Shown here piece by piece: positions 5,186-43,170 of a stretch of DNA of 64,000 nucleotides. The stretch lies in assembly GCA_035352955.1 (NCBI GenBank), contig DAOPYQ010000003.1, forward strand, positions 76,901 through 140,900, given 5' to 3'. The translations under genes and the position numbers were made by a program. The first letter of the stretch is position 1. Every line of letters begins with the position of its first letter. Origin of the DNA: Candidatus Omnitrophota bacterium. Lineage in GTDB: Bacteria; Omnitrophota; Omnitrophia; Omnitrophales; Aquincolibacteriaceae. The notes under the pieces are model-generated. The model worked only from the letters and a program-made list of their open reading frames with translations, did not search any database and was not told the origin of the DNA.

Positions 5186-5258
5186 AGCTGGTGGTCAGAA
5201 TCGAACTGACGACCTGCTGTTTACGAAACAGCTGCTCTACCAACTGAGCTACACCAGC
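5186..5258 (-). tRNA. tRNA-Thr (anticodon CGT)
   Basis: Manual fold of the minus-strand sequence gives acceptor GCTGGTG/CACCAGC, D arm GCTC-AGTTGGTA-GAGC, anticodon arm GCTGT-TTCGTAA-ACAGC, and T arm GTCAG-TTCGATT-CTGAC. The 3' CCA is not encoded. Confidence 0.85.
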
Positions 5259-6744: not shown

Positions 6745-9700
6745 CAGATGAAAACCTCCTCGGTCATGTCCGCGGTCTCAGAACCCCGCGTCTGGCGCTC
6801 CCGGAGCTTCTCGAGCGCCTTTTTATAATCCATCGGCATCACCTTCACAAAGCGCGGCAACATCTCATCCCAACTCGCAAGGACCGCCTTCGCAAATTTA
6901 CTCCCGGTGAACTTCGCATGCCGCTCGATGGAGGTCCTGAGAAACGTCGTGTCCTCCGCCTCGACCACCGGCTCCAGATCCACCATTTCAAGATTGCAGC
7001 GCGTGTCAAAAAGCTGGTTCTCATCCAGCACGTACGCGATCCCGCCGCTCATCCCCGCGGCAAAATTCACGCCCGTCTCGCCCAGGATCACGACCCGCCC
7101 GCCCGTCATGTATTCACATCCGTGGTCGCCGACCCCCTCAACGACCGCGATCGCGCCGCTGTTCCGGACACAGAACCGCTCGCCCGCGCGGCCGTGGATA
7201 TAAACCTCTCCGCTCGTCGCGCCGAACAGGTTCACGTTCCCCGTGATCATGTTGTCCTGCGGCCTGAACGTCGACGACTGCGGCGGGTACACGATCATCC
7301 GGCCGCCCGAAAGCCCCTTCCCGAAATAATCGTTCGCGTCACCTTCCAACTCGAACGTGATCCCGTGCGCCAGGAACGCCCCGAAACTCTGTCCCGCCGA
7401 ACCCTCGAACTTGATGTGCAGCGTATCTTCCGGAAGCCCCGCAAGACCGTACCGTTTTGCAACCTCGTAACTAAGCGTCGCCCCGACCGTGCGGTTACAA
7501 TTACGGATCTTCTGTTGAAGCACGACCGGCTGCTTGACCTCAAGCGCGGCCTTCGCCTTCTTGACCAGGTCCGGATCAAGCGACAGTGAAAGATCATGTT
7601 GCTGCTTCGACACGCATCGGATCGATCCGCCCTCCGGCACTTCCGCCTTCGCAAGAACCTTCGAAAAATCCAGCCCCTTGGTCTTGTAATGCTCGATCGC
7701 GTGATTCACCTCCAGCCGCTCCACGTGACCGACCATGTCCTCAAATTTCCTGAACCCGAGTTCCGCCATCCATTCCCGGACCTCCTGGGCCACGAACCGC
7801 ATAAAATTCATCAACGACTCCGGTTTCCCGGCAAAACGCTTGCGGAGCTCCGGATTCTGCGTCGCCACGCCGACCGGGCAGGTGTTCAGATGACACTTGC
7901 GCATCATGATGCAACCGAGCGTCACGACCGTCGAAGTCCCGAAACCGAATTCTTCGGCGCCAAGCAACGCGGCGATCACCACGTCGCGGCCCGTCTTCAG
8001 CTGGCCGTCGGTCTGCACGCGGATCCTGTCACGAAGCTTGTTCATCACGAGCACCTGTTGGGCTTCGGCGAGACCGATCTCCCACGGAGAGCCGGCGTAT
8101 TTGATCGACGAGATCGGCGATGCACCCGTCCCGCCATCGTGCCCGCTGATCAGGACCATGTCCGCTTTTCCCTTCGCAACGCCGGCCGCGACCGTCCCGA
8201 CCCCGACCTCAGAGACGAGCTTCACGGAAACCCGCGCTTCGGGATTGGCGTTCTTCAGATCAAAAATAAGCTGGGCCAGGTCTTCGATGGAATAAATATC
8301 ATGGTGCGGCGGCGGCGAAATGAGCATCACCCCCGGCGTCGAATGGCGAACCTTCGCGATCATCGCGTCCACCTTGTGTCCCGGCAGCTGTCCGCCCTCG
8401 CCCGGCTTCGCCCCCTGCGCCATCTTGATCTGTAGCTCTTTAGAATTCGCCAGATAATGGATCGTCACGCCGAAACGCGCCGAAGCGACCTGCTTGATCA
8501 TGCTCTTTGCGGAATCGCCGTTCGGAAGCGGCAAGTAGCGAGACTCATCTTCCCCGCCCTCGCCGGAATTGCTCGCGGCGCCGAGACGGTTCATGGCGAT
8601 CGCGATCGTTTCGTGGGTTTCCTTACTGATCGACCCAAACGACATCGCCGACGACACGAACCGTTTCACGATGGACTCGACCGGCTCGACCTCGTCGATG
8701 GGCACGGACGCGCCGGGCTTGAATTTAAAAAGGCCGCGGAGCGTACAGAGATTCCGGCTGATATCATTGACCTCGGCCGAATATTTTTTGAACGTCGCGT
8801 AATCGTTCTCGCGCGTTGCCTTCTGGAGAAGCGTGACCGCCATCGGCGACCAGAGATGTTTCTCGGAAAACAGGCGGTAGTGGTACTTGCCGCCGGAGTT
8901 GAGCGAATCCGCCACCGTCTCCCGGACCTGGAAAGCGCTCCGGAACCGTTCGACCGTCTCGCGCTCCACCGCCTCGATCCCGATCCCGTTGATCCGGGAC
9001 GCCGTACCCGGGAAATAGGTCGCTATAAAGTCGTCGTTCAACCCGACCGCCTCGAAGATCTGCGCGCCCCGGTAACTCCGGATCGTCGAGATCCCCATCT
9101 TCGACATGACCTTCAGCAGGCCCTTCTTGACCGCGGTGATGTAATTTTCGATCGCCGTTTCGATCGTGATCTTCCCGGACAGGCACCCGCGCCGCTTCAG
9201 ATCCGCCAGCGTCTCGAAGACAAGGTAGGGATTGATCGCGTTCACGCCGTAGCCGACCAGACACGCAAAATGCTGGACTTCGCGGGCTTCACCGGTTTCA
9301 AGCACCAGCCCTCCGAGGTAACGTTTCCCCACCCGGATCAGATGCTGATGGACCGCCGTTGCCGCCAACAGGGCCGGGATCGGCGCCTGGTCCGCGGAAG
9401 CCCCGCGATCGCTCAGAATGACCAGCGAATGACCTTCATCGATCTTTTTCTCGACGTTCTCGCAGAGTCCCTTGACCGCCTTGGGAAGATCCCCCGCGGC
9501 CGCAGGATTAAAAAGCATGGGAACCGTGGCGACACGAAAACTGCTGAGGTTCGAGGTCTTCAAACGGTCGATATCGTCGTTCGTCAGAACCGGATGGGAA
9601 AGCTTCAGCTGGTGACAGTGCTCCGGCCTCTCCTCCAGAAGATTCCCCTGGCGCCCCACGAAGCTCATCAGCGACATGACCAGGTTCTCGCGGTACGGAT

Positions 9701-11264
9701 CGATCGGCGGATTGGTCACCTGCGCAAAGAGCTGGCGGAAATAATTGTAAAGAAGCTGAGGTCGCTCGGAAAGGACGGCCAGCGCCGCGTCATTGCCCAT
9801 CGAGCCGACCGGTTCCTGGGCATTCTCGGCCATCGGCTGGAGGATCATCTTCTCGTCTTCAAGCGTGTAGCCAAAAATACGCTGGCGCAACGCGAGCGTC
9901 TTCTCGTCCACATCGACCGGGCCCGGGACCTGCAGCAGCCCCTTGAGCTCGATCCGGTTCTCCTCAAGCCACCGGCGGTACGGCTTACGGCGGGAGATGG
10001 CCGACTTGATCTCATTATCCTTGATGACGCGTTTGGCCGCCGTGTCGATCAGGAACATTTTTCCGGGGGCAAGCCGCCCTTTTTCAAGGACGTCCGGCGG
10101 ATTAATATCGAGCACACCGACCTCGGAAGCCATCACGACAAGACCGCTTTTGGTGATCACGTACCGTGCCGGCCGCAGCCCGTTCCGGTCCAGGATCGCG
10201 CCGACTTTCACGCCGTCGGTGAATGCGATCGCCGCAGGCCCGTCCCAAGGTTCCATGATCGCCGCATGGTATTCAAAGAAGGCGCGTTTCGCTTCGCTAA
10301 TGTGGTATTTGCTCCCGAACGCCTCCGGTACCATCATCATCATCGCATGCTCGAGCGAGCGGCCGCCAAGCGTCAAAAGTTCATAGACCGTATCAAATGT
10401 GGCGGAGTCGCTCAGCTGGGTATTGATGATCGGGAGAAGCTTTTTGATCTCCGGGCCGAAGAACTCGGAAGAGATCCGGACTTCGCGGGCCATCATCTTG
10501 TTGATGTTGCCGCGGAGCGTGTTGATCTCACCGTTGTGGGCCATGAAGCGGAACGGGTGCGCGAGAGGCCAGGACGGAAATGTGTTCGTGGAGTAACGTT
10601 GGTGGACCACCGCGAGAGCGCTGACAAAATCCTTTTCGGAAAGGTCGGGATAAAAAACTTCAAACTGCGGTGCGGCGAACATCCCCTTATAAACGATCTT
10701 GGAACAGGAAAGCGAAACAACGTAAAAATCCTCGATCGGCCATCCCGTCGCGAGCGCTTCGTTCTCAAAGACCTTGCGGAGCACATAAAGTTTCCGCTCC
10801 AAAGCGATCCCCTCAAGCCCGTCAAAAGCCACGAAAACTTGCCAGATGGAGGGCATGGATTCCCGGGCCATTTCGCCGAGACATTCCGGATGGACCGGCA
10901 CTTCCCGCCACCCGAGGAGCTTCCCGCCTTCGGCCGCGATCTTGGTTTCGATCATCTTCCGGGCCCGCGCGGAATCCTTCTCATTTTGCGGCAGAAACAG
11001 CATGCCGGCGCCGTAATGACCTTCCGCCGGCAGCTTGAATTTCAAAACCCGCGCGAAGAACTGGTGCGGGATCTGGAGGATCATCCCCGCGCCGTCGCCG
11101 GTCTTCTGATCGCCGCCGACCGCGCCACGATGGACGAGGTTGCAAAGGATCTGCACGCCGTCCCGGACGATCCGGTGGGAACGGGTCCCGTCGATCTTGG
11201 CGACGAACCCGACCCCGCAAGCGTCATGCTCCTGGCTGGGGTGATATAAACCGAATTCTTTCAT
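6744..11264 (-). CDS. gltB: Glutamate synthase large subunit (1506 aa)
   Basis: N-terminal Ntn amidotransferase Cys (MKEFGLYHPSQEHDACGVGF). The central, FMN-binding and C-terminal GXGXG domains are all present. Confidence 0.95.
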   Translation of the reverse strand: MKEFGLYHPSQEHDACGVGFVAKIDGTRSHRIVRDGVQILCNLVHRGAVGGDQKTGDGAGMILQIPHQFFARVLKFKLPAEGHYGAGMLFLPQNEKDSARARKMIETKIAAEGGKLLGWREVPVHPECLGEMARESMPSIWQVFVAFDGLEGIALERKLYVLRKVFENEALATGWPIEDFYVVSLSCSKIVYKGMFAAPQFEVFYPDLSEKDFVSALAVVHQRYSTNTFPSWPLAHPFRFMAHNGEINTLRGNINKMMAREVRISSEFFGPEIKKLLPIINTQLSDSATFDTVYELLTLGGRSLEHAMMMMVPEAFGSKYHISEAKRAFFEYHAAIMEPWDGPAAIAFTDGVKVGAILDRNGLRPARYVITKSGLVVMASEVGVLDINPPDVLEKGRLAPGKMFLIDTAAKRVIKDNEIKSAISRRKPYRRWLEENRIELKGLLQVPGPVDVDEKTLALRQRIFGYTLEDEKMILQPMAENAQEPVGSMGNDAALAVLSERPQLLYNYFRQLFAQVTNPPIDPYRENLVMSLMSFVGRQGNLLEERPEHCHQLKLSHPVLTNDDIDRLKTSNLSSFRVATVPMLFNPAAAGDLPKAVKGLCENVEKKIDEGHSLVILSDRGASADQAPIPALLAATAVHQHLIRVGKRYLGGLVLETGEAREVQHFACLVGYGVNAINPYLVFETLADLKRRGCLSGKITIETAIENYITAVKKGLLKVMSKMGISTIRSYRGAQIFEAVGLNDDFIATYFPGTASRINGIGIEAVERETVERFRSAFQVRETVADSLNSGGKYHYRLFSEKHLWSPMAVTLLQKATRENDYATFKKYSAEVNDISRNLCTLRGLFKFKPGASVPIDEVEPVESIVKRFVSSAMSFGSISKETHETIAIAMNRLGAASNSGEGGEDESRYLPLPNGDSAKSMIKQVASARFGVTIHYLANSKELQIKMAQGAKPGEGGQLPGHKVDAMIAKVRHSTPGVMLISPPPHHDIYSIEDLAQLIFDLKNANPEARVSVKLVSEVGVGTVAAGVAKGKADMVLISGHDGGTGASPISSIKYAGSPWEIGLAEAQQVLVMNKLRDRIRVQTDGQLKTGRDVVIAALLGAEEFGFGTSTVVTLGCIMMRKCHLNTCPVGVATQNPELRKRFAGKPESLMNFMRFVAQEVREWMAELGFRKFEDMVGHVERLEVNHAIEHYKTKGLDFSKVLAKAEVPEGGSIRCVSKQQHDLSLSLDPDLVKKAKAALEVKQPVVLQQKIRNCNRTVGATLSYEVAKRYGLAGLPEDTLHIKFEGSAGQSFGAFLAHGITFELEGDANDYFGKGLSGGRMIVYPPQSSTFRPQDNMITGNVNLFGATSGEVYIHGRAGERFCVRNSGAIAVVEGVGDHGCEYMTGGRVVILGETGVNFAAGMSGGIAYVLDENQLFDTRCNLEMVDLEPVVEAEDTTFLRTSIERHAKFTGSKFAKAVLASWDEMLPRFVKVMPMDYKKALEKLRERQTRGSETADMTEEVFI

Positions 11265-12129: not shown

Positions 12130-12200
12130 AGCGGGATACGGGAATCGAACCCGTCTGACCAGCTTGGGAAGCTGGGACATTACCACTATGCTAATCCCGC
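12130..12200 (-). tRNA. tRNA-Gly (anticodon CCC)
   Basis: Manual fold gives acceptor GCGGGAT/ATCCCGC, D arm GCAT-AGTGGTA-ATGT, anticodon arm CCAGC-TTCCCAA-GCTGG, T arm ACGGG-TTCGATT-CCCGT, and discriminator T. Confidence 0.85.
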
Positions 12201-20273: not shown

Positions 20274-20452
20274 GACCCCTACGCTTCCGTTTGACCGGTC
20301 CAACCCCCTGGGTTAGACGACTCATTTCGCGCCATTGTAACCGATTTCCTATAAACCTTTCAACCTTTCACAACTTTTCCGTCTAAAACCCACTTCGGAG
20401 ACCCGGTCTCCGAGGCGGTGGGTACGCCGTTCGAAAAAAAACGCCCACGGAT

Positions 20453-20536
20453 AAAAAAAAAGAGGTTCGTGACCGAGTGGGGATCTTTGTGGCCACGAAC
20501 CTCTGCAGGTGAGTCGAGACCCGTAAGTCTCGCAAT
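20453..20536 (-). ncRNA. Candidate small RNA (about 84 nt) bounded by its own promoter and an intrinsic terminator
   Basis: Minus-strand -35 TTGACA (20571..20566), 17-nt spacer, and -10 TATAGT (20548..20543). The predicted transcript contains hairpin GAGAC-UUACGGG-GUCUC. It ends in a 10-bp stem GAGGTTCGTG/CACGAACCTC (20462..20503) followed by a T9 run (20453..20461). Confidence 0.35.
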
Positions 20537-20542
20537 GAAGAT

Positions 20543-20571
20543 ACTATACTCCCAAAATTCCGGACTGTCAA
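20543..20571 (-). promoter_or_regulatory. Near-consensus sigma70 promoter (TTGACA-N17-TATAGT) on the minus strand
   Basis: The hexamers and spacing were read directly from the sequence. Confidence 0.45.
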
Positions 20572-20654
20572 CGGCGCGGCCCGCCTTCTCACCCCATATT
20601 TTCATTGCAAAAACCCCAAGTAAAACCCGGCCTTGCTAGAATGACGGGCAGGAA

Positions 20655-20702
20655 AATAAAAAAAAAAAGAAGGGGCACGGTTTTCCCATATCCCCTTCTT
20701 TG
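20655..20702 (-). terminator. Intrinsic terminator of the giant gene
   Basis: Stem AGAAGGGG/CCCCTTCT (20668..20702) followed on the minus strand by a T run of 13 or more (A13 on plus, 20656..20668). It lies 30 nt after the giant ORF stop. Confidence 0.7.
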
Positions 20703-20733
20703 GTAAAGCCTTACGCCGCGATCGCAACCGGCT

Positions 20734-23700
20734 TTAAGCGGCCGACGCGATCCTCTGGAACGCTTCGAACAGCACCTGCATGTTCTGCAGCATGCCATCG
20801 ATACTCTTCTTCGTGATCGCCAAACCCGAGGCGCCTTCTTTTTCAAAACCCGGCATTTTCAACAAAAGATCGGCCATCTGCTCCGGCGTCATTCCGCTCA
20901 GATTCCAGATCTTCTGGGCGCCGCGCATAGCCACACGACCCACCGCAGCCTGCGAAACGGCCCCCTGAACATTGTCCGCTTCGCGAACCACCACCCCGGT
21001 GACAAAGCTAAGATTCAGAAAGCTCAGAGCATTCGCCGTACCGGTCAAGACATACCCTTTCCCTTTAACCAGGGCCAGGAACTCCGCTGCCTTGGAATTA
21101 AAATCGTGCGCTTGAGGATCAAAAACCCTGATATCCACCTGGCTGATGAACGCCGGCCGGTGGATCTTATTGGCCCACGCCGCAAAATCCAGGAGAACCT
21201 GACGCACCGCGGCAGCATCGATCCCCGAGCCCAGCACCATCGTATCAAACCGCATATTGGGGTTCAGAAGCAGATTAAACTTCAAGAGAGCCAGAAACAC
21301 CTTCGGGTCCTTGAAGCCTTCGATCACTTTCACCAGACGGCCCGCATCCCCGCTGATCGGCAGAGGCATATTCGGCACCGCATTCTGCAACTGCTCCGTC
21401 AGACCCGTAATGGTCCGCTCATCGACAAGCAATGAGATCGCGATGATCACCGGCGCGAGAGCTTCCATATTGTCGCGTGCAATCCCCTCCGTCAGCGCCA
21501 CCGCCACCTTAAGCGCCGGCGTTTTGAGCTCAGATTCCGGGATCCCCATCGCCTTCAGCGCTTCCCGTGTCGTCTCCATCGCCGTCCGGACCTGCTGCTT
21601 TGTAAAATTCTGTTCGACCCACTTGGCTACGGCAAGCTGCCTTTCGGAAACAGAAACGTCCCGGCGTTCGGCGCGCCCGGCTTCGGCGGCCTTGACCTTT
21701 GCAGCCTCCTCGAGACGCTCAGCCTTAGCCTTCGCCGCGAGAGCGAGAGCGATCGCCCGCATCTCATCAAAAGTCGCGCCCCGGTCGATCGCCGTCTTGA
21801 TCGCCACACGCCCGGCGCCCTCAATTTCAGCCAGCGACACCACCGCCGAAAGCAAGAGAACCTCCCGCTCATCCGACGTGGTCGCCTTGTCCGTAATAAT
21901 GTCGCGAAGCGAACGGAAACCAACGATTTCCCGGCCCTCGGCATCGCGGGCGGGAGCATCAAAACTATTAAAGAAATCCGTGTACTTCTGATATCGAGTG
22001 TCCGTCTGTCCCAGAATGAGCCCGGCCGCATCGGGCTTGGCATCCGCGGGAATCTTCAACACGTTCCAGAAGGCGTGACTGACCTGGTGCTTGGATTTTG
22101 CAGCCGCATTCCACACCTTGAAGTCCGCGATGTTATTGTTGTCCTCAAGCGCCAGACCCGGCACCTCGCGGCTCAGAATCTCAAGAGCTTTGTCCGAGGT
22201 CATTTCCAATTTCCCGGCGCGCGGCGACAAAGCCGTACGAACGGACGGCGCTTCGATCCTAGTGACAGCCTCCTCGCTCAGAACCCACTCCTGGGGAAAC
22301 GTATTGATCCCGGAAGTCAATTTTGTGAGATCCAGATCCTTCGGGATCATGACATTCTGCGGCGCGATCCCCCGCACCAGGTGGCGGATGTAAAGATTTC
22401 CTTCAAACGCGAACACCGCAACCACAAAATTCGCATCCAGAACAAACTGCGGATCGTTCGAGCTGACCCGGATCTCCACTTTTTTCTTGTCACCGCTCAA
22501 GCGCACATTGATACGGCTCGGAACACCTTCCAGGTCCGTCCTCGCGGCATTCACGGAAGTTTCGAGAGCCGTCGCCTCCAGTACTTCGGACTGGATCGCC
22601 AACGCCTGCTCCTTCGTGTATGTTTTGAGGCTCCGGATAAGCTCCTGAAGCTCGGTTTTCGTAGCACCTTCGGGGAACCCATACGTTTCAACGATCGTCT
22701 CCAACGTCCGCACAAGCTCCGGCCTTGAATTTTTCATGAAATACGCATTCTCAAACGCACGCACTCTCAAACCCAAATTGGTATCTTGCGGCGTGAACGA
22801 CCGCTGTCTTATAATGGAAGTCAAACGGAAAGCCTCGTCCAATTCGTTCAACGTCATCTCCCGCTTCTCTGCGCGGAGGGTGGAAAGGGCCAGCGACGAA
22901 AACAACCGGAAAGCCTCGTCGGCGCGGGCCTGATCCTCCGGAGCAACGGTAAAGAGTTTCGTTTTGATCGATCTCAGGGTCATGGAGGTATCATCCCCAT
23001 CGTCGTACTTTTGTTTCGCCATCTGGATGATCCCGACGAGGTCCATCGTCGTGATCCCCCGAGCCACACTCTCAGCTTCCGTCAAAGCGCTCAGGATCTG
23101 CGGAGGATCGATCACCCTTGAAAGATCCGAAGCCGTCAAGATGGGCTCTTCCTGTCCGACAACCGTTGGCGTCCTCTGAGCCGCAGTAGAAACCCTGATC
23201 GCTGAAGCCAGCGGCGGCACATTCGCCGCCATGGGAACATCCCGCTTCTCACTGTTGGCGCGAAGTTCCTTCGAAACAGCGGCCTTCGCGGCTTCCGAGA
23301 ATTTCCCGGTAAAAAACGGATTCAATTCCGCGAAAGTATCGCGACTGACCGAGGGCCTCCGGGCCTTCCGGTACAATTGCCACGCGCCATAGATCGCCTT
23401 AACCAACGATTCGTTGCCGGTGGCACTCTGGGTAGCCGCCCAAAACGCGGCATCGATCTCTCTGTCCGTTAAAGTCCCCTGTTGAACAACCTGCAGCGCT
23501 GTCCAATTCACCGTGGGGTCACCCTCCTCCGTCAGACCACGCTTCTCCGCGCGGATTTCTTTGCGCGACGCGGCATCGAGCATGGGACGAAGCCCGTCCA
23601 AATAGTGTTTCACGGCCGCATTGTAGGCCTTGGCTTTGAAAACGCTTGTATTGGCATAAAGATCCTTAACCGTTTTAAGAGCATCCCGGTCCAGCGGCGT

Positions 23701-26700
23701 GTCCACCGGTGTCGCGCTATCAAGTCCGACGCCTCCGTTCCGTCCTTTCCCCAAATCCGCGGCCTCGCTCCGCACCGCAGCGCCGCCGGCGTTAAACCGG
23801 TAGAAAGAGATCAGATCATCGAACAGCGCCATCCATTTTTCGGCACGCACAGCCTGCGAATTCTTGGGATCCAAGGCTCCCGCAAGAAGATCTTCCAAAA
23901 CAACGTGCTTGCGCGCGCGAACGATCTTGACAAGATCCTCAACCGTTTTCGGGGCTTCGACCAGCGCCCCAGCCGTCACAACGGTCCCCGTGGGAGTCAC
24001 GACCATCCCGGCCGTCGCAGCAACCGGAACCGACGTCATGAGCAGACCCGCAGCCGCCAGTTCCTGGATTCCGAGCCGCTTTTCCGCCCGGGTGATGTCC
24101 ACGATCTCGTTAGAACCAAGTAAAACCACCATCACACGGCCTGTTACCTGCCGGACCTCGGTACTGTTCGCGTTCAAGCCGGGCATGTGCTCGTCCCAAA
24201 GTTGACGCAAGATCGGAAAGACAATCCGCGAATTGACCGCGTAGAAATCAAGCCCTTTGAATGCGCCGACACCTTTACGCGCAACGATGGCATTCGCAAG
24301 CGCTTCGATCAGCCGGTCCTGCTCATCAGCGGCAGTAGCCAGACGCAATCTCGTCGCTAAATCAATGACCTCGGGCGCTGTGCTTAAGAATTCTATAGCT
24401 TCCAGATTTATTCCCTTCACCTCCGAGCGGGCGGGAGGACGGACCCCGAGCCGCTTTTCCGCCCGGGTGATGTCCGCGATCTCGTTAGAACCAAGTTTGA
24501 TCCGGTGAGTCACGGGACTCATGGCCCGGTTAATGACGACCCTGTAGGAAACTCCCGTCTTCAATTGTCCTTTGAGGAGCTCCTGCCAACGGAAAGTCCG
24601 ATCATCGAAAACAATCGTCGGCCCATCCGTCGTAACATGCACCGTCATCCCGATCCCCTTTGACGCATTCTTTTCCAAACGTCCCGCCAGGAAAGGAACA
24701 ACCTGGTCGGCGGAAAGTACTTCAGTCGCCAACTGGCGCGCGGCAACGACAACGTCGCGATTAGCCTCAACATGGGCAGTCTCGATCTTCCGCGCCAGAT
24801 CCTCTTTCTGAAGATCGTCGTAGAATTCGGCTCCCAACACGCCCTGCGAAATCTCCGCCGCGGAATAGCCCTTCGAATCGGACTGTTTGATCAGCTCGAT
24901 CTGCGCCGCATTCAAGCCGAAACTCTCAAGGCCCTCGGCCAACCTCGCCATAAGCTCGAAATTAACACCTCGCAGCGTCAGCGCAAGCTGCAACGTCTCA
25001 CGCTGGATCGCCAACGCGAGCCGCTGTCTCGCGCTTTTGATCCGGCCTTTAACAAGATCCCGGTCGATCGACAGGAAATCCTCGGCAAGCTCCGCGGTGG
25101 ACGCACGGTCCAACTCACTGAGCCTCTTAAACTGCGGAACCGCGCCCGTCCAGAGACGCAGCTGCAATTCGATACGTTCGGGGCTGGTTGTGAGCCACCG
25201 TTTAAGAGACTCACTCTGCTTCGGAAAAAGCGTCACAAAAGATTCGGCCAGATCCCTGAAAAGTCCGGTAAAGAGCATCGCCAAAGGTAAAAACAAAGCG
25301 ATCCCCCCCACCGCCAACGCGTACACCGGGATCCCGAGAGATGCATTAGCGAACGCCACCGCCGCCGCCACAGACACTCCGGCACTCAGGGCGAGACTCC
25401 CCCCGCGGATAACCTGCATAGTCTTTTCAGAAAGCGGTGACACCGAAGGCTCTTCGAGGGAAGATTGGTAGACCGCTGACCAGACGAACTTGAGGACTGC
25501 GCGGATCACGGTCGTAGAACCGGCCGCGATCAGCAAAAACACTGCGATAGTCGGCAGAACCGCCAGCGTACCGACTGCTGCTGCCAATGCCTGCAGAAAG
25601 AAAAACGCCGGGATCAACGCCAGCATCCAGCTGGCCGTTTCCAGGCTTCCACGAATCCCGGCTTCCCTGTCCTCACGGGCCTGTTCGGCTTGCATCGCTA
25701 CGGACATCGCCGGATTGAGCGCCGCGTTTGCGAGATTCACCTGACGGCGTTCCGCGACACGCGCGGCTTCTCCCGAGACGTAATAAGAGATCTGGTCATA
25801 AATAACCGCAAGCGACGGGATCGCAAGTGTCGCCGCGACGATCAGGGGCATGATAAAAATCCCGGTCACCCCGGCCAACACTCCGCTGATGAACGGATAC
25901 ACAAGACCGGCGATCGACGTCGCTCCGGCGGCGATATTCGCGCCCAGGGACGTTCCGATCGTCATAAAATCCTTTTTCTCGCCGCGCTTTTCCGCGCGGA
26001 TAGAAAAAGCAAAAGCATTGAAAGCTCTTTCAGCGACCGCAACGGTGATCCTGCCATCATCATCCACCTGCGGGGCGAAAAGAAGCTCCCACAAACGCGT
26101 CAGATCCGGATTAGCAGACATCTTCGGGATTTTCCCTGTCGCCCGCACCATGACCCCCTGACGTTGATGATAAGCCTCCCAGGCCGCCTGGAGGACATTC
26201 CAAACATTTTTGTCGCGTTCCACCGCCTGAGTAAGAACAGCCCTATGAAAAGCCGACTCGATCTCCACCGGGGTCGGCTTAAAATCCATCCCCATCGGAT
26301 CCTTGGCATACGCCTCAACAACCCGGGCAAAGGTTTCTTCGAGAATAGCCGCGTCCTTGATCCTTTTAGGGTCAAAACACTGCGTCTTAAGCGTCGCCAG
26401 GTCCATGTTGGCGGGCGTTCCCAGGCGCTTTTGTTCCTCTAGCCATTTGGAGTACTGTCCCATGGCTGAATCAAGAGCATCCTGGATCTTAGAGATCTTT
26501 ATTTTCTCAGGGGACTCCTCGGCCGCGTTCCGGAACGATGAGCTTTCAATTTCGGCGGCCAATTGGACCCTTTCAAAAGCCCTCCGGATCTGGAAAGATT
26601 CCAGATCCGCCCGCAGGTCCGCGCCGCGTCTTTCCGAGCGCAGACTGGACACGAACAGATCATAGGCCTCATCCACATCCGCCTGCGTGATCCGGGGTTC

Positions 26701-29700
26701 CGCGGTTTTGGGTTGACGGCCCGTCTGTTCGGTAAAAAACGACTTCATGCCGGACAACGTTAAGGCGGCTATTTTCTTGTAAGCTTCCGCTTGTCCCCGG
26801 GCAAGTGTCACCTCTTTGTTGTAAGCCTCCCAAGCCTGTTCGAGAACATTCAACGCGGAACCCGTCGCAAGGGCTGACGCCCGGTTAAAAGCGAACCACG
26901 CCCGAAGACCATTCACCGGCGTTTGCGGATTTACTCCGGTCGTTTCTTCGGCGCGTTTTTCCTGGCGCGACGCAGGCAGGCTCAATGGCTTGAGGATCCA
27001 AAGAACGCCGGCCACAGTGATGGTCGCGTTGGAAGTCGCTGTGGTGGCCCGGAGAATTATCGGCGTTTTGCGGTGACGAACCTCCATAAGAACGGCGTTA
27101 ACGCCCTGGAATTCCTCGTCGGTTAAAAACCGTCCGAGGCTCCCGCCTTTTTTACCATCCTCATATTGAACCACCGGATATTTCGCAAGGACCGCTTCAA
27201 GACGGCTCTGTTCCGCAACATTGTTGGTTTGCTGGGCCTGCGTAAGGGCTTCGGCGATCTGACCGATCTGGACCCGGACCTGGTCGGCGTCGACCTGGAG
27301 GAACTTCGCAAGATCCGCGACCTGCTTCTCGGTAAATACTATCTTCTGCTCCCCGGCAAGCTGCGTCGCCCGTTTTTCTTGGCGTCCGGCAAGTGTCACC
27401 GGGACGGAAAAAAGCGGCCGTATCTCGATCGCATTGTCCTTCATACTCACCGAATATGTTTTTTCCATCGTCTCGGGAATCGAGTCGGGAAGATCCATCT
27501 GAAGCTTGAACTGCGCCAATTCCCCGAGATTTAAACTGTTTTTCGTCAACATCTGATCGTCCCCGGAATAGTTCCCCTCAAAAATGGGGTCTTTTCCGAC
27601 GAGATCGCTGTCCCCGAATCCGAAGATCCGGAGGGCCACGGAAGTCCTGCGGCCTTTATTTCCACGCGCGGTCAGCGTCCAAAGAGTATTCACCACGCGC
27701 GGAATGTTCTCCAATTGCGTTCCGCGGAGCTCCTTGCGGCCAGCGGCATTGAGAAACCCATTCGTCCCGCCAATGATCCCGGCAAAAAGTGTCGGAGAAT
27801 TGAGAAAAGCATTTGTCATGATCGTGTAGCTCGGCGTTTGGGGAGTCGCCTGAAAACCCCGGCTCACGACCGCCCAACCATTCGTATCGGTCAACCGATT
27901 GTTCGCGACAATATAAAAAACCATGTTGGTAATGTCCGAGGAAGTCCCCATCGTCCAACCCGCGAGAACCCCAGTGGGGGTTTTCTCAAGAAAATTCATG
28001 CGAGGAGAAGCCTCAGTGGTCTCGCCTTTACCAAACGAAACAAGTTGCGTCCCCACAGGCACTTCATTTGTTGTAAAAGCACCCGCCACACTCGCTATCG
28101 AGAGAGCAAAGATCAACCCAAGTGCGCGCCACATAGCCGGCAACATTTTCAAATTAACGGGCCCGCGTTCTGACGGCGTTCCGCGGAGCTCCTTGCGGCC
28201 AGCGGCATTGAGAAACCCATTCGTCCCGCCAATGATCCCGGCAAAAAGTGTCGGAGAATTGAGAAAAGCATTTGTCATGATCGTGTAGCTCGGCGTTTGG
28301 GGAGTCGCCTGAAAACCCCGGCTCACGACCGCCCAACCATTCGTATCGGTCAACCGATTGTTCGCGACAATATAAAAAACCATGTTGGTAATGTCCGAGG
28401 AAGTCCCCATCGTCCAACCCGCGAGAACCCCAGTGGGGGTTTTCTCAAGAAAATTCATGCGAGGAGAAGCCTCAGTGGTCTCGCCTTTACCAAACGAAAC
28501 AAGTTGCGTCCCCACAGGCACTTCATTCGTCGTGAAAGCTCTCGCCGAGAGCACTGCCCCAAACGCGAGAGACACGGCCAGCAAAATCGATTGTAATCCC
28601 CGGGAAATATAGATCGGCGATTTCACAACGGGCGCCGTTTCCTCAACGCCGAGGCCAAGCGCTGTAAAAAAGTTCATACCCAACCTGACCCCCAGCGCGC
28701 TAAGCGACCTCATCAGAGTGACATCCGTAAGCACCGGCATCACGGCCAAAAAGTCCCGGATCTCCTGCGTCAAACCCGGTTCGAGCGGACGTGTCGCGAT
28801 AATGTTATTCAACTCGGCAGCGATCTTTTCTTCCTTCTGGGCCCGCGTCATGCGCTTTTCCGCGCGGGTGTACGTGACCAGGATCGCCGGATTCCCAAAC
28901 CTGGAAGGACGGATTTGCACAACAAACGGCCCCTTACCGTTAACAGCCGCTAAAGCGTTCGTCAGGCTTTCCGGACCGGAATAATTGACCGGTTGCTCCG
29001 CCGTATCGCCGCCCATGATGAGAAAAACTCTTGCGGAAGGATTCAGTTCGACAAGACGGGCCACGGCTTCACGGACCCCGTCCAGATTGTCCACCTGCTT
29101 GGGTCCACGATAGTCCCGCCCGTCGATCACAGCGTCCACCTCGCCCCTCTTTTCCGCGCGGGGAGTACCCACGTCCCGATCGTCTTGAATCACGCCACCC
29201 GCAACCGGACCCATTTTTAGTAGATTCATATCCCCCGTAGGAATTTCCGGGGATTTCATCCGCGTGGCGGGTCCGTCCGGAAAGATACTTTTGGAAAGAC
29301 TCGCTCTCTCGTTCCTGTTGCGGATCCAGCGGGCGGCCGAAACCGCTCCGGCGACAACCCCCACGCCAAGGATCACGGCGAGAGACACGCCGGTCGTAAG
29401 AAAAGCCAGTCCTGCCGCCGCCAACGCGATCGCGACGCCGCCGAGAACAATGCTGTCTTTCCAGGCAGGCTGAAAATAAACCATCGAAATTTTGGAGAAA
29501 TCGAACTTCCCCGACGTGAGATCAGGGATCTTCCACTCGGCCAGCATTCTCTTGGCCAGTGTTTCCCTTTCATTAATACTAAAAAGCCTGTCTTGTAGCA
29601 AATGGTGTGCGAAGTTCGTCCTCTCGTCCTGCAGCAGCCACGGACTTTGGGCGGTCTGGGGAAGCTCCCGCTTTTGGTCCTCAGACTTCCCGCCGTTAAT

Positions 29701-31788
29701 GGCAAGAAGCCGCATAAGCTCGTTAACTTTCTCGGGAGTGTAGATCGCGTTAAGCTTTTCGATCGCAGCCTGGCGGACCGCCGGATCCTCACTTCCCAGA
29801 TCCCTTAGCGATGCCGCGGCAATTTCATTTCCCTTGTCCAAGGTCGGCGCAAGCATCTCAGGCAAAATCTGCCCCATTTGAACGGCAATCGTGTCGTCGA
29901 CTATGGCAGTCGCACCGTCGATCCCGACCTGGTCGGGACTGACCTTGCGAAGAACGCGGTACGTTTCACCGCCCTCTTTCGCTTGGACGAGCCGCAACTC
30001 ATTGCGACGAGCCATGGGCCCGTCATTCACGTCAGGAAGGATCCCGGCAGGTGTTGGGACTTCTGCCACTTTGGTTGCGGTCGCAAGTAATTTGCCCAGG
30101 ACCCCCAGTTCCCCAACACCCTGCGCATCCTGGCCGACAGGTCCTTTGAGCGGCTGAGCGAGAAGGGTTTTTTCGACAAAAGACAGCTCGAAATTCTGCT
30201 TTCCGTCCTGGAGCATGGTGGAGCGGTAAAGTCTCTCGTCGGATTTTTCACTAAGGCGCGGGGTGACGATCCCATAGCTCACGGAATTTTCGCGGAAAAG
30301 GTCGCTCATGCCGTCCGTGTGAAAACCGCCCGTGATAAGGACGGCCTTCGTGATCTTGCGCTGGCTCATGGCGTTCTGCATTTCTTTATAGAAGACGCCT
30401 TCACGCTGACGGGCGAAACCGTAGAACTCAAGGCCGGTCTTGAACAGCTCGGTCATCTTTCCGCTAAAAGCCTTGGGCATGACCTCCTGGTCTTTGCGGA
30501 CCGAGGTATCCCCCGCGGCAATGATCGCGGTCTTCAGGCGTTCGACAAGGTTCGTCACGGTCACACGATCCCCGGCATCGACCAGCTCGCGCCACTGCGT
30601 GCGGCTCAACTCCAGATGCAAAAGCTTACGCAAAAGCTCACCGTCCCTGTAAAGGGCAAGGAGGGCCTTCTGCTGAGGCTCCTTGGCTAAGGCATCGAGC
30701 ATCTGCGTAAAAAGGTATTCAATCTCCGCGAACAGGACCTTGGGGTCAAGTTCGGCCCGGAGCGTCACGTAACCGGCAAAAAGGCTGAACGCAGGATAAT
30801 CGCTGAATTTGAATCCTTTGGGGGCGACTTCAGCGGCAAGGCGCTCGAGCACGTCGCGCGGAGAAACTTCCTGCGCGGATTTTCCGACGGAGATGCTCCC
30901 TTCATTGAAACTTTCAAGCGCGGCAAGAAGTTCTTTCGAGACGCCCTTCGTTTTGAGCATTTTGAGAAGCGCGGCCTTTTCTTCGAGTCCCTTGGCTTTG
31001 TCCAGGGACTTTTCCATTTCCTGGATGGCCAGAAGGCGCGTGATCTGCGGCCAGCCGGCCTGGGCGAAAAGGCTGTTAAGATCGACATCGAGGATTCTCC
31101 TGGACTGTTTGGCGAGCTGCTGAACGAAAGGCATGAATTCGCGGCGGCCCAGCTCGAAACGTTTCCAGTCGGCGATCAGGGCGCGCGTCTCGGGCGTAAA
31201 GACCTTGGAGGCGGCCCGGTCGAGCTTCTGATCAAATCCCTGAAAGAAACGGTTGACGTCGGGTTCGGCGCCGAACACTTTCTTCAGCGCTTCGTAGTTG
31301 GCCTTGTAAAGAGGCGCCTGCTCGATGCCGAGTGCTTCGACGTTCTTCTCGTTCTCCATCAGGAACAGTTCGGAACCGGTCAGCTCGCCCTGCTTGGCGA
31401 GTTCGTCGCACAGTTTAAGATTGCGTTCTTCATCGGGAAAAAGGCGGAGATAATCCGCATCGAGTTTGGTCGAGGCCCCTTCCACAAAAATGGTCGTGAA
31501 TCCGTATTTCTTGTTCATGTGCTCCAGAAGTTGCTTGATCTTCATCTGGGCTTGATAATTGGCGTGCGCGTTCTGGATATGAAGGATGAATTGCGGTGCA
31601 GTAGATGCGGGCGCTTCGTAAAGAGCATCGACGGTGCCGAGATCCACGGGAACATCAATGCTTAAATAAGTGGGCAGTTCTCTCTTGGACGCAATTTCGA
31701 TATTAGCACCGGGGGCCCCCCATGCGATCTGTGTCGTGAGAAAGCAAACCACGGTCGCCGCCGCGATCACCTTCAGGCCCTTTTTCAT
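20734..31788 (-). CDS. Giant 3684-aa secreted/membrane protein of unknown function, with an N-terminal TraB/GumN/Tiki-like domain
   Basis: Uninterrupted 11,055-nt ORF with a signal peptide MKKGLKVIAAATVVCFLTTQIAWGAPG. The N-terminal roughly 530 aa carry TraB/GumN-family motifs: HIQNAH, FVEGAS, and GGFHTDG...YGIV. A central cluster of 6 or more TM helices maps to about 25250..26000. The sequence also has a recurring RAEKR motif and an internal perfect tandem duplication. Confidence 0.8.
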   Translation of the reverse strand: MKKGLKVIAAATVVCFLTTQIAWGAPGANIEIASKRELPTYLSIDVPVDLGTVDALYEAPASTAPQFILHIQNAHANYQAQMKIKQLLEHMNKKYGFTTIFVEGASTKLDADYLRLFPDEERNLKLCDELAKQGELTGSELFLMENEKNVEALGIEQAPLYKANYEALKKVFGAEPDVNRFFQGFDQKLDRAASKVFTPETRALIADWKRFELGRREFMPFVQQLAKQSRRILDVDLNSLFAQAGWPQITRLLAIQEMEKSLDKAKGLEEKAALLKMLKTKGVSKELLAALESFNEGSISVGKSAQEVSPRDVLERLAAEVAPKGFKFSDYPAFSLFAGYVTLRAELDPKVLFAEIEYLFTQMLDALAKEPQQKALLALYRDGELLRKLLHLELSRTQWRELVDAGDRVTVTNLVERLKTAIIAAGDTSVRKDQEVMPKAFSGKMTELFKTGLEFYGFARQREGVFYKEMQNAMSQRKITKAVLITGGFHTDGMSDLFRENSVSYGIVTPRLSEKSDERLYRSTMLQDGKQNFELSFVEKTLLAQPLKGPVGQDAQGVGELGVLGKLLATATKVAEVPTPAGILPDVNDGPMARRNELRLVQAKEGGETYRVLRKVSPDQVGIDGATAIVDDTIAVQMGQILPEMLAPTLDKGNEIAAASLRDLGSEDPAVRQAAIEKLNAIYTPEKVNELMRLLAINGGKSEDQKRELPQTAQSPWLLQDERTNFAHHLLQDRLFSINERETLAKRMLAEWKIPDLTSGKFDFSKISMVYFQPAWKDSIVLGGVAIALAAAGLAFLTTGVSLAVILGVGVVAGAVSAARWIRNRNERASLSKSIFPDGPATRMKSPEIPTGDMNLLKMGPVAGGVIQDDRDVGTPRAEKRGEVDAVIDGRDYRGPKQVDNLDGVREAVARLVELNPSARVFLIMGGDTAEQPVNYSGPESLTNALAAVNGKGPFVVQIRPSRFGNPAILVTYTRAEKRMTRAQKEEKIAAELNNIIATRPLEPGLTQEIRDFLAVMPVLTDVTLMRSLSALGVRLGMNFFTALGLGVEETAPVVKSPIYISRGLQSILLAVSLAFGAVLSARAFTTNEVPVGTQLVSFGKGETTEASPRMNFLEKTPTGVLAGWTMGTSSDITNMVFYIVANNRLTDTNGWAVVSRGFQATPQTPSYTIMTNAFLNSPTLFAGIIGGTNGFLNAAGRKELRGTPSERGPVNLKMLPAMWRALGLIFALSIASVAGAFTTNEVPVGTQLVSFGKGETTEASPRMNFLEKTPTGVLAGWTMGTSSDITNMVFYIVANNRLTDTNGWAVVSRGFQATPQTPSYTIMTNAFLNSPTLFAGIIGGTNGFLNAAGRKELRGTQLENIPRVVNTLWTLTARGNKGRRTSVALRIFGFGDSDLVGKDPIFEGNYSGDDQMLTKNSLNLGELAQFKLQMDLPDSIPETMEKTYSVSMKDNAIEIRPLFSVPVTLAGRQEKRATQLAGEQKIVFTEKQVADLAKFLQVDADQVRVQIGQIAEALTQAQQTNNVAEQSRLEAVLAKYPVVQYEDGKKGGSLGRFLTDEEFQGVNAVLMEVRHRKTPIILRATTATSNATITVAGVLWILKPLSLPASRQEKRAEETTGVNPQTPVNGLRAWFAFNRASALATGSALNVLEQAWEAYNKEVTLARGQAEAYKKIAALTLSGMKSFFTEQTGRQPKTAEPRITQADVDEAYDLFVSSLRSERRGADLRADLESFQIRRAFERVQLAAEIESSSFRNAAEESPEKIKISKIQDALDSAMGQYSKWLEEQKRLGTPANMDLATLKTQCFDPKRIKDAAILEETFARVVEAYAKDPMGMDFKPTPVEIESAFHRAVLTQAVERDKNVWNVLQAAWEAYHQRQGVMVRATGKIPKMSANPDLTRLWELLFAPQVDDDGRITVAVAERAFNAFAFSIRAEKRGEKKDFMTIGTSLGANIAAGATSIAGLVYPFISGVLAGVTGIFIMPLIVAATLAIPSLAVIYDQISYYVSGEAARVAERRQVNLANAALNPAMSVAMQAEQAREDREAGIRGSLETASWMLALIPAFFFLQALAAAVGTLAVLPTIAVFLLIAAGSTTVIRAVLKFVWSAVYQSSLEEPSVSPLSEKTMQVIRGGSLALSAGVSVAAAVAFANASLGIPVYALAVGGIALFLPLAMLFTGLFRDLAESFVTLFPKQSESLKRWLTTSPERIELQLRLWTGAVPQFKRLSELDRASTAELAEDFLSIDRDLVKGRIKSARQRLALAIQRETLQLALTLRGVNFELMARLAEGLESFGLNAAQIELIKQSDSKGYSAAEISQGVLGAEFYDDLQKEDLARKIETAHVEANRDVVVAARQLATEVLSADQVVPFLAGRLEKNASKGIGMTVHVTTDGPTIVFDDRTFRWQELLKGQLKTGVSYRVVINRAMSPVTHRIKLGSNEIADITRAEKRLGVRPPARSEVKGINLEAIEFLSTAPEVIDLATRLRLATAADEQDRLIEALANAIVARKGVGAFKGLDFYAVNSRIVFPILRQLWDEHMPGLNANSTEVRQVTGRVMVVLLGSNEIVDITRAEKRLGIQELAAAGLLMTSVPVAATAGMVVTPTGTVVTAGALVEAPKTVEDLVKIVRARKHVVLEDLLAGALDPKNSQAVRAEKWMALFDDLISFYRFNAGGAAVRSEAADLGKGRNGGVGLDSATPVDTPLDRDALKTVKDLYANTSVFKAKAYNAAVKHYLDGLRPMLDAASRKEIRAEKRGLTEEGDPTVNWTALQVVQQGTLTDREIDAAFWAATQSATGNESLVKAIYGAWQLYRKARRPSVSRDTFAELNPFFTGKFSEAAKAAVSKELRANSEKRDVPMAANVPPLASAIRVSTAAQRTPTVVGQEEPILTASDLSRVIDPPQILSALTEAESVARGITTMDLVGIIQMAKQKYDDGDDTSMTLRSIKTKLFTVAPEDQARADEAFRLFSSLALSTLRAEKREMTLNELDEAFRLTSIIRQRSFTPQDTNLGLRVRAFENAYFMKNSRPELVRTLETIVETYGFPEGATKTELQELIRSLKTYTKEQALAIQSEVLEATALETSVNAARTDLEGVPSRINVRLSGDKKKVEIRVSSNDPQFVLDANFVVAVFAFEGNLYIRHLVRGIAPQNVMIPKDLDLTKLTSGINTFPQEWVLSEEAVTRIEAPSVRTALSPRAGKLEMTSDKALEILSREVPGLALEDNNNIADFKVWNAAAKSKHQVSHAFWNVLKIPADAKPDAAGLILGQTDTRYQKYTDFFNSFDAPARDAEGREIVGFRSLRDIITDKATTSDEREVLLLSAVVSLAEIEGAGRVAIKTAIDRGATFDEMRAIALALAAKAKAERLEEAAKVKAAEAGRAERRDVSVSERQLAVAKWVEQNFTKQQVRTAMETTREALKAMGIPESELKTPALKVAVALTEGIARDNMEALAPVIIAISLLVDERTITGLTEQLQNAVPNMPLPISGDAGRLVKVIEGFKDPKVFLALLKFNLLLNPNMRFDTMVLGSGIDAAAVRQVLLDFAAWANKIHRPAFISQVDIRVFDPQAHDFNSKAAEFLALVKGKGYVLTGTANALSFLNLSFVTGVVVREADNVQGAVSQAAVGRVAMRGAQKIWNLSGMTPEQMADLLLKMPGFEKEGASGLAITKKSIDGMLQNMQVLFEAFQRIASAA
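27717..28527. repeat. Perfect in-frame tandem duplication inside the giant gene (period 459 bp = 153 codons)
   Basis: 27717..28068 is 100% identical to 28176..28527 (352 bp). Both copies encode AFTTNEVPVGTQLVSFGKGETTEASPRMNFLEK...NAAGRKELRGT. Each copy is preceded by a diverged hydrophobic segment. Confidence 0.85.
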
Positions 31789-31960
31789 GTTTTGTATCCT
31801 CCTCGGATCAGATTATGAACCCTTTTTAAAAGATTAAAAAACATAAAGAAAATGTAACATATCACGGCCAGTTTGCAAGCCTAAAAATCCCCTCAAGAGG
31901 ACTTTTTTAAGATTTATTGTAAGTCTAACCGAATCAACCATTTGCACAGTTTTTCTCCGC

Positions 31961-32689
31961 TTAAATGGTTACGAATTCAACGCCAAAACCAAGTTGCTCC
32001 TTGCGAACTTCCTCTCGACGGATCTTCCCGGCAACCTGGTACTCCTCCGGAAAATTGGCACTTGGGAAGATATGAATGTCGACCTTGAGTCCCGCAAGGG
32101 GCCCAAGAGCCGAGATCCGATGCGCCGCACCAAGGTCCAAATACTCCGCAAACAGCCCTCCTTCGCTGATATTGGTCGCGATGGCGCGCGTTTGGAGAAC
32201 CTCCCCCTTCGGGCTTGTGATCGTGAGCTTCAGCGGGATCGCCACATGCATACGATGACTGCGGCGCTTTTCGAGCTGGTGCCCCGGCGAATCCTGCGGG
32301 TTTTTTACCCCCGGCGCCATGATGCGCTTTTCCGCGTCCTTGTCAAAAAGGAACGGCCCGAAACTTTCCGCCACTTCCTTTTCGTCCGCGCACACGTCGA
32401 CCTTCCCGGTAAAGCAATTATCCTCGAGATAATGGGCCATCTCCGCGGAGGCCCCATAGATCACACTGTGCTTGGGGCGGATGCAGACCGTCAGCAGCCT
32501 TCGCAGACCGATCGCGTCAAGCGCTCCGGCCTCCTGGAAATTCAAAATGATCCTCTGCAGACGGTGGCGCCGAATGTTCTTCTGGATCTTCCAGGCAACC
32601 TCCTGCACGGATTCAAAGGTCGGCTCTCCTTTCAAGTCAAAGACAGCGACCCCTCCGATCTCTCTGGTGGAATAGTGGAATTTGCTCAT
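31961..32689 (-). CDS. STAS (anti-sigma-antagonist-like) + PilZ (c-di-GMP-binding) fusion protein
   Basis: N-terminal STAS-like region VAVFDLKGE...ILNFQEAGALDAIGLRRLL. The SpoIIAA phospho-serine position holds Ala, so it is not phosphorylatable. C-terminal PilZ motifs RRSHR (RxxxR) and NISEGG (D/NxSxxG). Confidence 0.7.
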   Translation of the reverse strand: MSKFHYSTREIGGVAVFDLKGEPTFESVQEVAWKIQKNIRRHRLQRIILNFQEAGALDAIGLRRLLTVCIRPKHSVIYGASAEMAHYLEDNCFTGKVDVCADEKEVAESFGPFLFDKDAEKRIMAPGVKNPQDSPGHQLEKRRSHRMHVAIPLKLTITSPKGEVLQTRAIATNISEGGLFAEYLDLGAAHRISALGPLAGLKVDIHIFPSANFPEEYQVAGKIRREEVRKEQLGFGVEFVTI

Positions 32690-43096: not shown

Positions 43097-43170
43097 TGCG
43101 CTGTAGAGGATTCGAACCTCTGACCCCTACCATGTCAAGGTAGTGCTCTAACCAACTGAGCTAACAGCGC
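43097..43170 (-). tRNA. tRNA-Val (anticodon GAC)
   Basis: Manual fold gives acceptor GCGCTGT/ACAGCGC, D arm GCTC-AGTTGGTTA-GAGC, anticodon arm CTACC-TTGACAT-GGTAG, T arm AGAGG-TTCGAAT-CCTCT, and discriminator A. Confidence 0.85.

Follow-up and report, generated by a model that had tools for sequence, protein, structure and literature searches.

The window analysed here is a 64,000-nucleotide stretch of DNA from a Candidatus Omnitrophota bacterium (GTDB family Aquincolibacteriaceae; assembly GCA_035352955.1, contig DAOPYQ010000003.1, positions 76,901 to 140,900 of the forward strand). Its minus strand carries, at 20734..31788, a giant gene consisting of one uninterrupted open reading frame (ORF) for a protein of 3,684 amino acids (aa), annotated as hypothetical protein HNX68498.1 of Candidatus Omnitrophota, which begins behind a strong Shine-Dalgarno sequence (GAGGAGG) with an N-terminal signal peptide and in which no Pfam domain was found at E ≤ 0.01. 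Inside this gene a piece of 352 bp is present twice with 100% identity, at 27717-28068 and 28176-28527. Both copies are in the reading frame of the gene on the minus strand, and their starts are 459 bp (153 codons) apart; that a match of this length arose by chance is impossible. The original prediction, which had drawn attention to the repeat, gave the same coordinates, length and period, and these were confirmed exactly.

Since the gene is read from the minus strand, the copy at 28176..28527 (copy 1; codons N1088-T1204 and base 1 of codon 1205) precedes in the protein that at 27717..28068 (copy 2; codons N1241-T1357 and base 1 of codon 1358). At the protein level the identity extends over 121 residues, A1084-T1204 and A1237-T1357 (AFTTNEVPVG...AAGRKELRGT), in agreement with the duplicated module of roughly 120 aa that had been predicted. 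The two tracts are separated by a non-repeated spacer of 107 nucleotides (nt) (28069..28175, minus), which encodes a linker, (P)SERGPVNLK, and a hydrophobic, signal-peptide-like stretch (stretch 2; M1215-A1237) that reads MLPAMWRALGLIFALSIASVAGA and is followed by F. Its counterpart in front of copy 1 (stretch 1, GLQSILLAVSLAFGAVLSARA; 28537..28599, minus; aa 1064-1084), recognised by inspection, lies 85 residues past an RAEKR motif at aa 975-979 and reads ...LLAVSLAFGAVLSARA before F, with A-R-A directly preceding F1085. Copy 2, and only copy 2, is followed by an unduplicated C-terminal continuation (27385..27716, minus; aa 1358-1468; QLENIPRVV...PVTLAG).

That a different hydrophobic stretch precedes each copy (aa 1064-1084 and 1215-1237) had also been predicted correctly, and both stretches have an A-x-A end directly before the identical F-T-T-N-E. 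Both lie within the chain, are preceded by Arg or Lys, show a Kyte-Doolittle mean over 19 residues of 1.85-1.87 and end in A-R-A or A-G-A before F. Their signal-peptide character was judged by inspection only, against the Sec-type criteria of a basic n-region, an h-region of 10-15 residues and small residues at positions -3 and -1; they may serve as signals or anchors of the Sec type, with a role in export or in insertion into the membrane. A class III signal (G followed by F-x-x-x-E and then a helix of ~20 residues) was considered and rejected: F-T-T-N-E occurs, but it has Ala at position -1, and the hydrophobic stretch lies before it. An internal translation start at M1215, with separate translation of the second unit, was also rejected, because no Shine-Dalgarno sequence precedes the ATG of M1215, although one is present at the gene's own start and at those of several neighbours.

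The repeat had been described as a 100%-identical tandem duplication of 459 bp, and this description did not hold. Of the 459-bp period only 352 bases recur, and Tandem Repeats Finder reported no array. A simple head-to-tail tandem duplication would need 459/459 matches at the offset, and the other 107 nt are at shuffle level: between the spacer (28069-28175) and the 107 nt in front of copy 1 the similarity is not significant, the observed score being reached by 154-183 of 500 shuffles at the DNA level and, when the two upstream regions were compared as protein, by 404 of 1000. By the same comparison with shuffles, similarity of the two signal-peptide regions was not significant. No inverted repeats were found, and the module showed no significant sign of foreign origin in its composition (G+C content at third codon positions 0.585 versus 0.657 for the gene, a difference of ~1.6 standard deviations for 118 codons).

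The two ends of the identical tract are unlike each other. On the N-terminal side homology continues for ~19 nt (28528..28546, minus), in which 14 of 19 positions are identical to 28069-28087 and five differ. Three of the five differences are synonymous third-position changes in the F-T-T codons (TTC/TTT, ACG/ACA, ACG/ACA); at the protein level A-R-A-F-T-T of copy 1 stands against A-G-A-F-T-T, so that A-x-A-F-T-T is kept and A-[R/G]-A only partly. On the C-terminal side the identity stops abruptly, ...LRGT being followed by PSERG in copy 1 and by QLENI in copy 2, which alone runs on for 110 aa more, as far as an RQEKR motif. The differences are therefore clustered: none in 352 nt, five in the next 19 nt, and beyond these no detectable similarity. 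Were the five differences distributed uniformly over the 371 alignable nt, the probability of finding all of them in the terminal 19 would be (19/371)^5 or ~3.5e-7 (hand calculation).

On balance we favor the interpretation that the repeat is an older paralogous pair, two units of an export signal and a domain of ~120 aa lying side by side, whose cores were recently homogenised by intragenic gene conversion. In the order that we infer, a unit of signal peptide and domain would have been duplicated within the giant gene at an earlier time, the signal-peptide parts of the two units would then have diverged beyond recognition, and the 352-bp core encoding the domain would recently have been made identical by non-reciprocal recombination between the units. 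The units appear older than their zero divergence suggests, because the signal parts have diverged and because synonymous differences are found just upstream of the tract; a fresh tandem duplication does not fit, because after such an event the upstream regions would have stayed identical. One end of the converted tract would lie within homologous sequence and the other where homology stops, since copy 1 is followed by the linker and copy 2 by the extra C-terminal part of 110 aa. An identity run significantly longer than the adjoining divergence predicts, a criterion for gene conversion, is seen here as 0/352 versus 5/19 differences, measured against a homologous flank that is short.

A second patch in the same gene shows the same signature as the 352-bp repeat, in shorter form. 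Its partners are LGSNEIADITRAEKRLG (24445..24495, minus; aa 2432-2448) and LGSNEIVDITRAEKRLG (24070..24120, minus; aa 2557-2573), in which the codons for LGSNEI[AV]DITRAEKRLG are identical over ~51 nt except for 2 nt; the paralogous segments around them are only ~35% identical over 97 aa.

Several points weigh against gene conversion between older units. The older paralogy is carried by only ~19 nt of decaying homology, and the signal regions are not demonstrably homologous. Because the module has no relatives in any searched collection, there is no outgroup by which to date the duplication or to tell which copy was the donor. The assemblies discussed below may all be derived from short reads, the contig name of one of them having the form given by SPAdes. 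Bubble removal in de Bruijn graphs can erase a few real differences between copies and so produce apparent identity; differences collapsed in this way would exaggerate the recency or the completeness of the homogenisation. Finally, two hydrophobic stretches in series are an awkward topology, in which the second would be a stop-transfer sequence. Unless the chain were cut first, one copy would come to lie on each side of the membrane, so that the rearrangement may be non-adaptive, either neutral or slightly harmful, and not a design with a function.

The original prediction had left the choice between a very recent duplication and a collapse or expansion during assembly. It was right to weigh recency against artefact; the fresh head-to-tail event it had in mind does not match the anatomy, and gene conversion was missed. 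That assembly effects account for the identity, the two copies having been collapsed to one consensus that hides slight true differences or at least three units of module and spacer having been reduced by a minimal path, we regard as unlikely. The repeat of 352 bp exceeds typical short reads and k-mers, and in a de Bruijn graph a shared node of 352 bp is traversed twice with the same consensus; the ENA contig, with its SPAdes-form name, has a coverage of only ~7.8. Yet the exact 3,684-aa protein is found on four contigs from ENA, NCBI and JGI sources. Contig NODE_10 of ENA assembly ERZ795026 (205 kb, coverage 7.8) agrees with the window over 17 kb with no differences, and contig DAONFQ010000044.1 of the metagenome-assembled genome GCA_035403665.1, which has 3 nt differences from the window in 11,620, shows both copies with the spacer between them and again an identity of 352 bp. 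All four junctions (from stretch 1 to module, from module to linker and stretch 2, from stretch 2 to module, and from module to C-terminal part) are present in the window, in ERZ795026 NODE_10 and in GCA_035403665.1. The junction from module to linker and stretch 2 requires at least two copies and is reproduced with all the others, once from a slightly different population; and the 11-kb reading frame stays open through both copies, which a pure mis-join is unlikely to leave. Since two further assemblies carry both copies, the junctions of the repeat are real, and a wholesale artefact, the false repeat or assembly expansion that had been envisaged, is unlikely.

Quite unlikely, in our estimation, is a very recent segmental duplication of the 352-bp piece, or of a longer one that later had its 5' part exchanged, without any gene conversion. 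The absence of differences in 352 bp, the offset by a multiple of three that keeps the frame, and the near clonality of the two sampled populations (3 nt in 11.6 kb), from which it follows that little time has elapsed in the lineage, would all be accounted for in this way. A head-to-tail event predicts 459 identical bases, however, of which 352 were found, and a bare insertion of 352 bp would have had to land in frame right after a pre-existing A-x-A-F-T-T site with other synonymous codons; such a landing site already implies an older paralogue at that position. Highly improbable is programmed variability in size or content, either by expansion and contraction as in alpha C/Rib proteins or by the template/variable repeat pair of a diversity-generating retroelement (DGR). 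In its favor, RecA-dependent deletion and amplification act readily on perfect direct repeats that are 352 bp long and in frame, and export or membrane attachment is predicted for the protein. Against it stand the presence of two copies only with a unique spacer between them, the lack of length variants among the three members of the protein cluster at 90% identity, the lack of adenine-specific mismatches and indeed of mismatches of any kind, the lack of inverted repeats and of an RNA family, and, for a DGR, the lack of a reverse-transcriptase domain in the genes up to 3 kb away from each end of the giant gene. A template/variable repeat pair of a DGR, a mobile element and a structured RNA were rejected for the same reasons (no mismatches, no inverted repeats, no Rfam family, no flanking reverse-transcriptase domain).

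Homologous recombination between the two 352-bp repeats, for which they are a substrate, would delete or add exactly 153 codons in frame. The size variation suggested in the original prediction is thus mechanistically possible in steps of 153 codons; no variant of this kind was found in the assemblies or in the 90% cluster, whose three members are all consistent with two copies. The notion of an actively expanding module was not borne out, every assembly having exactly two copies, and phase variation is likewise without support, as a repeat that is in frame cannot act as an on/off switch. Identical in-frame intragenic repeats that are kept uniform by recombination are known from alpha C/Rib of group B Streptococcus and from HagA of Porphyromonas gingivalis. 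With these the giant gene shares large, in-frame, nucleotide-identical repeats in an exported protein, the copy number of which can change without a break of the frame. It differs from them in having two copies with a unique spacer of 107 nt and a signal-like leader for each copy, in that one copy lacks the C-terminal continuation, and in that no copy-number variants were seen. The repeat is real but ordinary, and is probably one more instance in which repeats within the gene of a large exported protein of bacteria stay identical through recombination.

The module itself has no recognisable family. Pfam and NCBIfam gave no match; a word-indexed search of 5.8e9 proteins with the de-duplicated segment of 341 aa found no relatives, and a full HMMER scan of 1.84e9 representative proteins with aa 1206-1473 as query returned only the protein's own cluster and two spurious matches (P0004 and P0005, Ig/cadherin-like arrays), which are inflated by repeats. 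GTDB genomes and JGI metagenomes likewise yielded no relative of the module. The upstream flank (aa 882-1087) is also without relatives. Since the module is without relatives, its copy number cannot be compared in other lineages. A match to the Minf_1886 family (TIGR04138) obtained with 27370-28851 (minus) as query, with 21.4 bits (E = 2e-4; curated cut-off 60 bits) and in two stretches with both copies, fell to 11.7 bits (E = 0.2) when a single copy was used; the first score had been inflated by the duplication. A type IV pilin-like module was rejected, as the best sequence match in the PDB, to PilA (6xxd), was not significant (E = 0.062). A single-sequence AlphaFold prediction of the module was unusable (predicted local distance difference test score, pLDDT, 35). 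A possible resemblance of IIGGTNGF to dirigent and allene-oxide-cyclase-like proteins had no tool support. As a working inference, the module is probably an exported, beta-rich domain behind a Sec-type signal or anchor.

The repeat-containing segment of the protein is bounded by two short, Arg-rich motifs, RAEKR at aa 975-979 (28852..28866, minus), which opens a segment of 494 aa, and RQEKR at aa 1469-1473 (27370..27384, minus), which closes it. There are 12 such motifs of the form R-[AQS]-E-[KR]-[RW] in the giant protein, seven of them exactly RAEKR, and they divide it into 13 segments of 81-881 aa. The other ten, all on the minus strand, are at aa 877 (29146-29160), 1608 (26953-26967), 1717 (26626-26640), 1931 (25984-25998), 2442 (24451-24465), 2567 (24076-24090), 2648 (23833-23847), 2746 (23539-23553), 2972 (22861-22875) and 3372 (21661-21675). 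The giant ORF is the only one in the window in which the motif is enriched. A signal at the nucleotide level was rejected for the RAEKR motifs, since their codons vary between instances; because of this variation the conservation is at the level of the protein. The linker after copy 1 (28147-28182, minus; aa 1203-1214), ...RGTPSERGP or ...GTPSERGPVNLK, bears on inspection a faint likeness to ...VGTPRAEKRGE at aa 873-883; speculatively, from the letters of the two peptides, it could be a decayed boundary motif.

The first ~550 aa of the giant protein are conserved, with 22-72% identity, in ~50 Omnitrophota proteins (P0006-P0056, relatives of aa 1-881), most of which have 1,000-1,500 aa and lack Pfam domains in the N-terminal part. 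Their C-terminal parts are heterogeneous, some containing Glucosamine_iso, PFK, HATPase_c or methyltransferase domains; the C-terminal domain of the window protein (20737..21660, minus; aa 3377-3684) is ~29% identical to those of P0012 and P0014. In the 52 proteins (the giant and 51 relatives) R-[SA]-E-x-R was observed 56 times, compared with 3.6 times expected from shuffles, and with little conservation in the flanks. Across the family the motifs lie at module boundaries. Several are directly followed by a signal peptide or a Tat-like leader, for example RSEVR-GRWPTFLSWAGKHRRFLLVGGMTAAMLVG... in P0012, RSEMR-AGGLKTLLLAALLLG... in P0009 and RPEIR-SDLSRRQFLTTVAAAAGALMLPGGALGA in P0035, and in P0054 the Glucosamine_iso domain (aa 1214-1423) is contained in a segment whose motifs start at aa 991 and 1451. 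The R-[SA]-E-x-R motifs are candidate processing sites, at which the host protein may be processed into modules; the arrangement suggests a concatenated, possibly processed, multi-module protein.

The closest relative with known context is P0007 (1,415 aa; N-terminal domain 72% identical), encoded at locus L003 (GCA_005795915.1, SESF01002341.1) between a gene for a PilZ-domain protein and an ORF of ~80 aa, which is the position that the giant gene has in the window (20360-32689). The upstream neighbor in the window (31961-32689, minus) encodes a protein with STAS and PilZ domains, and the gene that precedes P0007 in L003 is likewise a PilZ gene. As the gene neighborhood is the same, the window gene is ~2,270 aa longer than its positional orthologue; no relatives of the extra segments were detectable.

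The conserved N-terminal domain (30109..31788, minus; aa 1 to ~560) has E103, G104, E156, Y161, E355, R462 and G487-G488-F489-H490 invariant and H75 nearly so. An AlphaFold model computed from the alignment of 52 sequences had a pLDDT of 85 and a predicted template modelling score (pTM) of 0.81, and Foldseek found no significant neighbor of it in the PDB, the best matches having E > 0.4. The match at rank 3 (E = 1.1, not significant) was to 3b55, an EreA-like protein. Three of five divergent N-terminal domains matched PF04187 (ChaN, Tiki superfamily) at the invariant GGFH with sub-threshold E-values of 0.006-0.07, and the residues H75, E103 and H490, which may correspond to the His...Glu...His (GxxH) signature expected of Tiki, TraB, ChaN and EreA proteins, are invariant or nearly so. 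These conserved residues are a lead towards a Tiki/TraB-like hydrolase, not a classification; the domain may perhaps be a hydrolase or protease.

Tentatively, and with less than even probability, the whole protein can be read as a cassette-like polyprotein, in which unrelated modules, many of them with their own Sec or Tat signal or transmembrane segments and some recognisable as enzymes, lie in a row between a conserved Tiki/ChaN-like N-terminal domain and a conserved C-terminal domain and would be processed at R-[SA]-E-x-R sites. The window gene would then have grown from ~1,400 to 3,684 aa by the addition of modules, the unit of accretion being an export signal and a domain, and the repeat would be a snapshot of this growth. 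Polyproteins that are processed at internal signal peptides and at sites with basic residues are known from flaviviruses and from the precursors of the gingipains RgpA, Kgp and HagA. The giant protein resembles them in its heterogeneous modules in one ORF, its internal signal-like stretches and its recurring Arg-rich motif (mostly RAEKR); unlike them it comes from a bacterium and not a virus (as compared with the flaviviruses), has putative cleavage sites that are candidates only, and contains no recognised protease domain. The candidate protease of the analogy would be the N-terminal domain with its sub-threshold similarity to Tiki/ChaN. In the literature no Omnitrophota polyprotein was found, the sole paper containing both terms being unrelated.

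Giant proteins of Omnitrophota were described as largely unannotated, membrane-associated and possibly cleaved, at cleavage points that are not known (West-Roberts et al., 2023, bioRxiv 10.1101/2023.11.21.568195), and strictly identical nucleotide tandems were reported to be uncommon and small in giant Omnitrophota genes (2026 preprint, 10.64898/2026.06.07.730766). The window protein has in common with them the phylum, a very long ORF that is dark to Pfam, a signal peptide and many transmembrane segments. With 3.7 thousand aa, as compared with 10-147 thousand, and without C39/S8 peptidase, dockerin or SecA-like domains, it differs from them and belongs to a separate family defined by the conserved N-terminal domain of ~550 aa; an assignment to the Archaeovorin or dockerin-type giant class (>10 thousand aa; C39/S8 peptidase, SecA-like, dockerin) was rejected because of its length and its lack of Pfam domains. 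A linker or cleavage motif is mentioned neither by West-Roberts et al. (2023) nor in the 2026 preprint, the text of which nowhere contains 'motif', 'linker' or 'proteoly'. If the polyprotein interpretation is true, the R-[SA]-E-x-R motif supplies the candidate cleavage sites that are missing for the giant proteins of Omnitrophota, and a defined short motif would make the question of their cleavage testable. The repeat itself is of little weight and has mattered mainly in leading to the motif architecture of its host gene. It also illustrates that the age of a duplication cannot be read from an absence of divergence, and that a query containing a duplication yields inflated E-values with hidden Markov models, as with TIGR04138.

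The neighbors of the giant gene, up to 3 kb away in both directions, are genes for STAS-PilZ, MgsA-like, PheT, DUF1844, LPG synthase, AroQ and AccB/C proteins. No RNA family was found near the repeat, the only Rfam matches in the window being three tRNA genes (5186-5258, 12130-12200 and 43097-43170, minus). A 930-aa ORF at 8457-11249 (plus), which has no Pfam match and is probably spurious, lies opposite to a 1,506-aa ORF at 6744-11264 (minus) that encodes an ordinary large subunit of glutamate synthase (GATase_2, Glu_syn_central, Glu_synthase and GXGXG domains).

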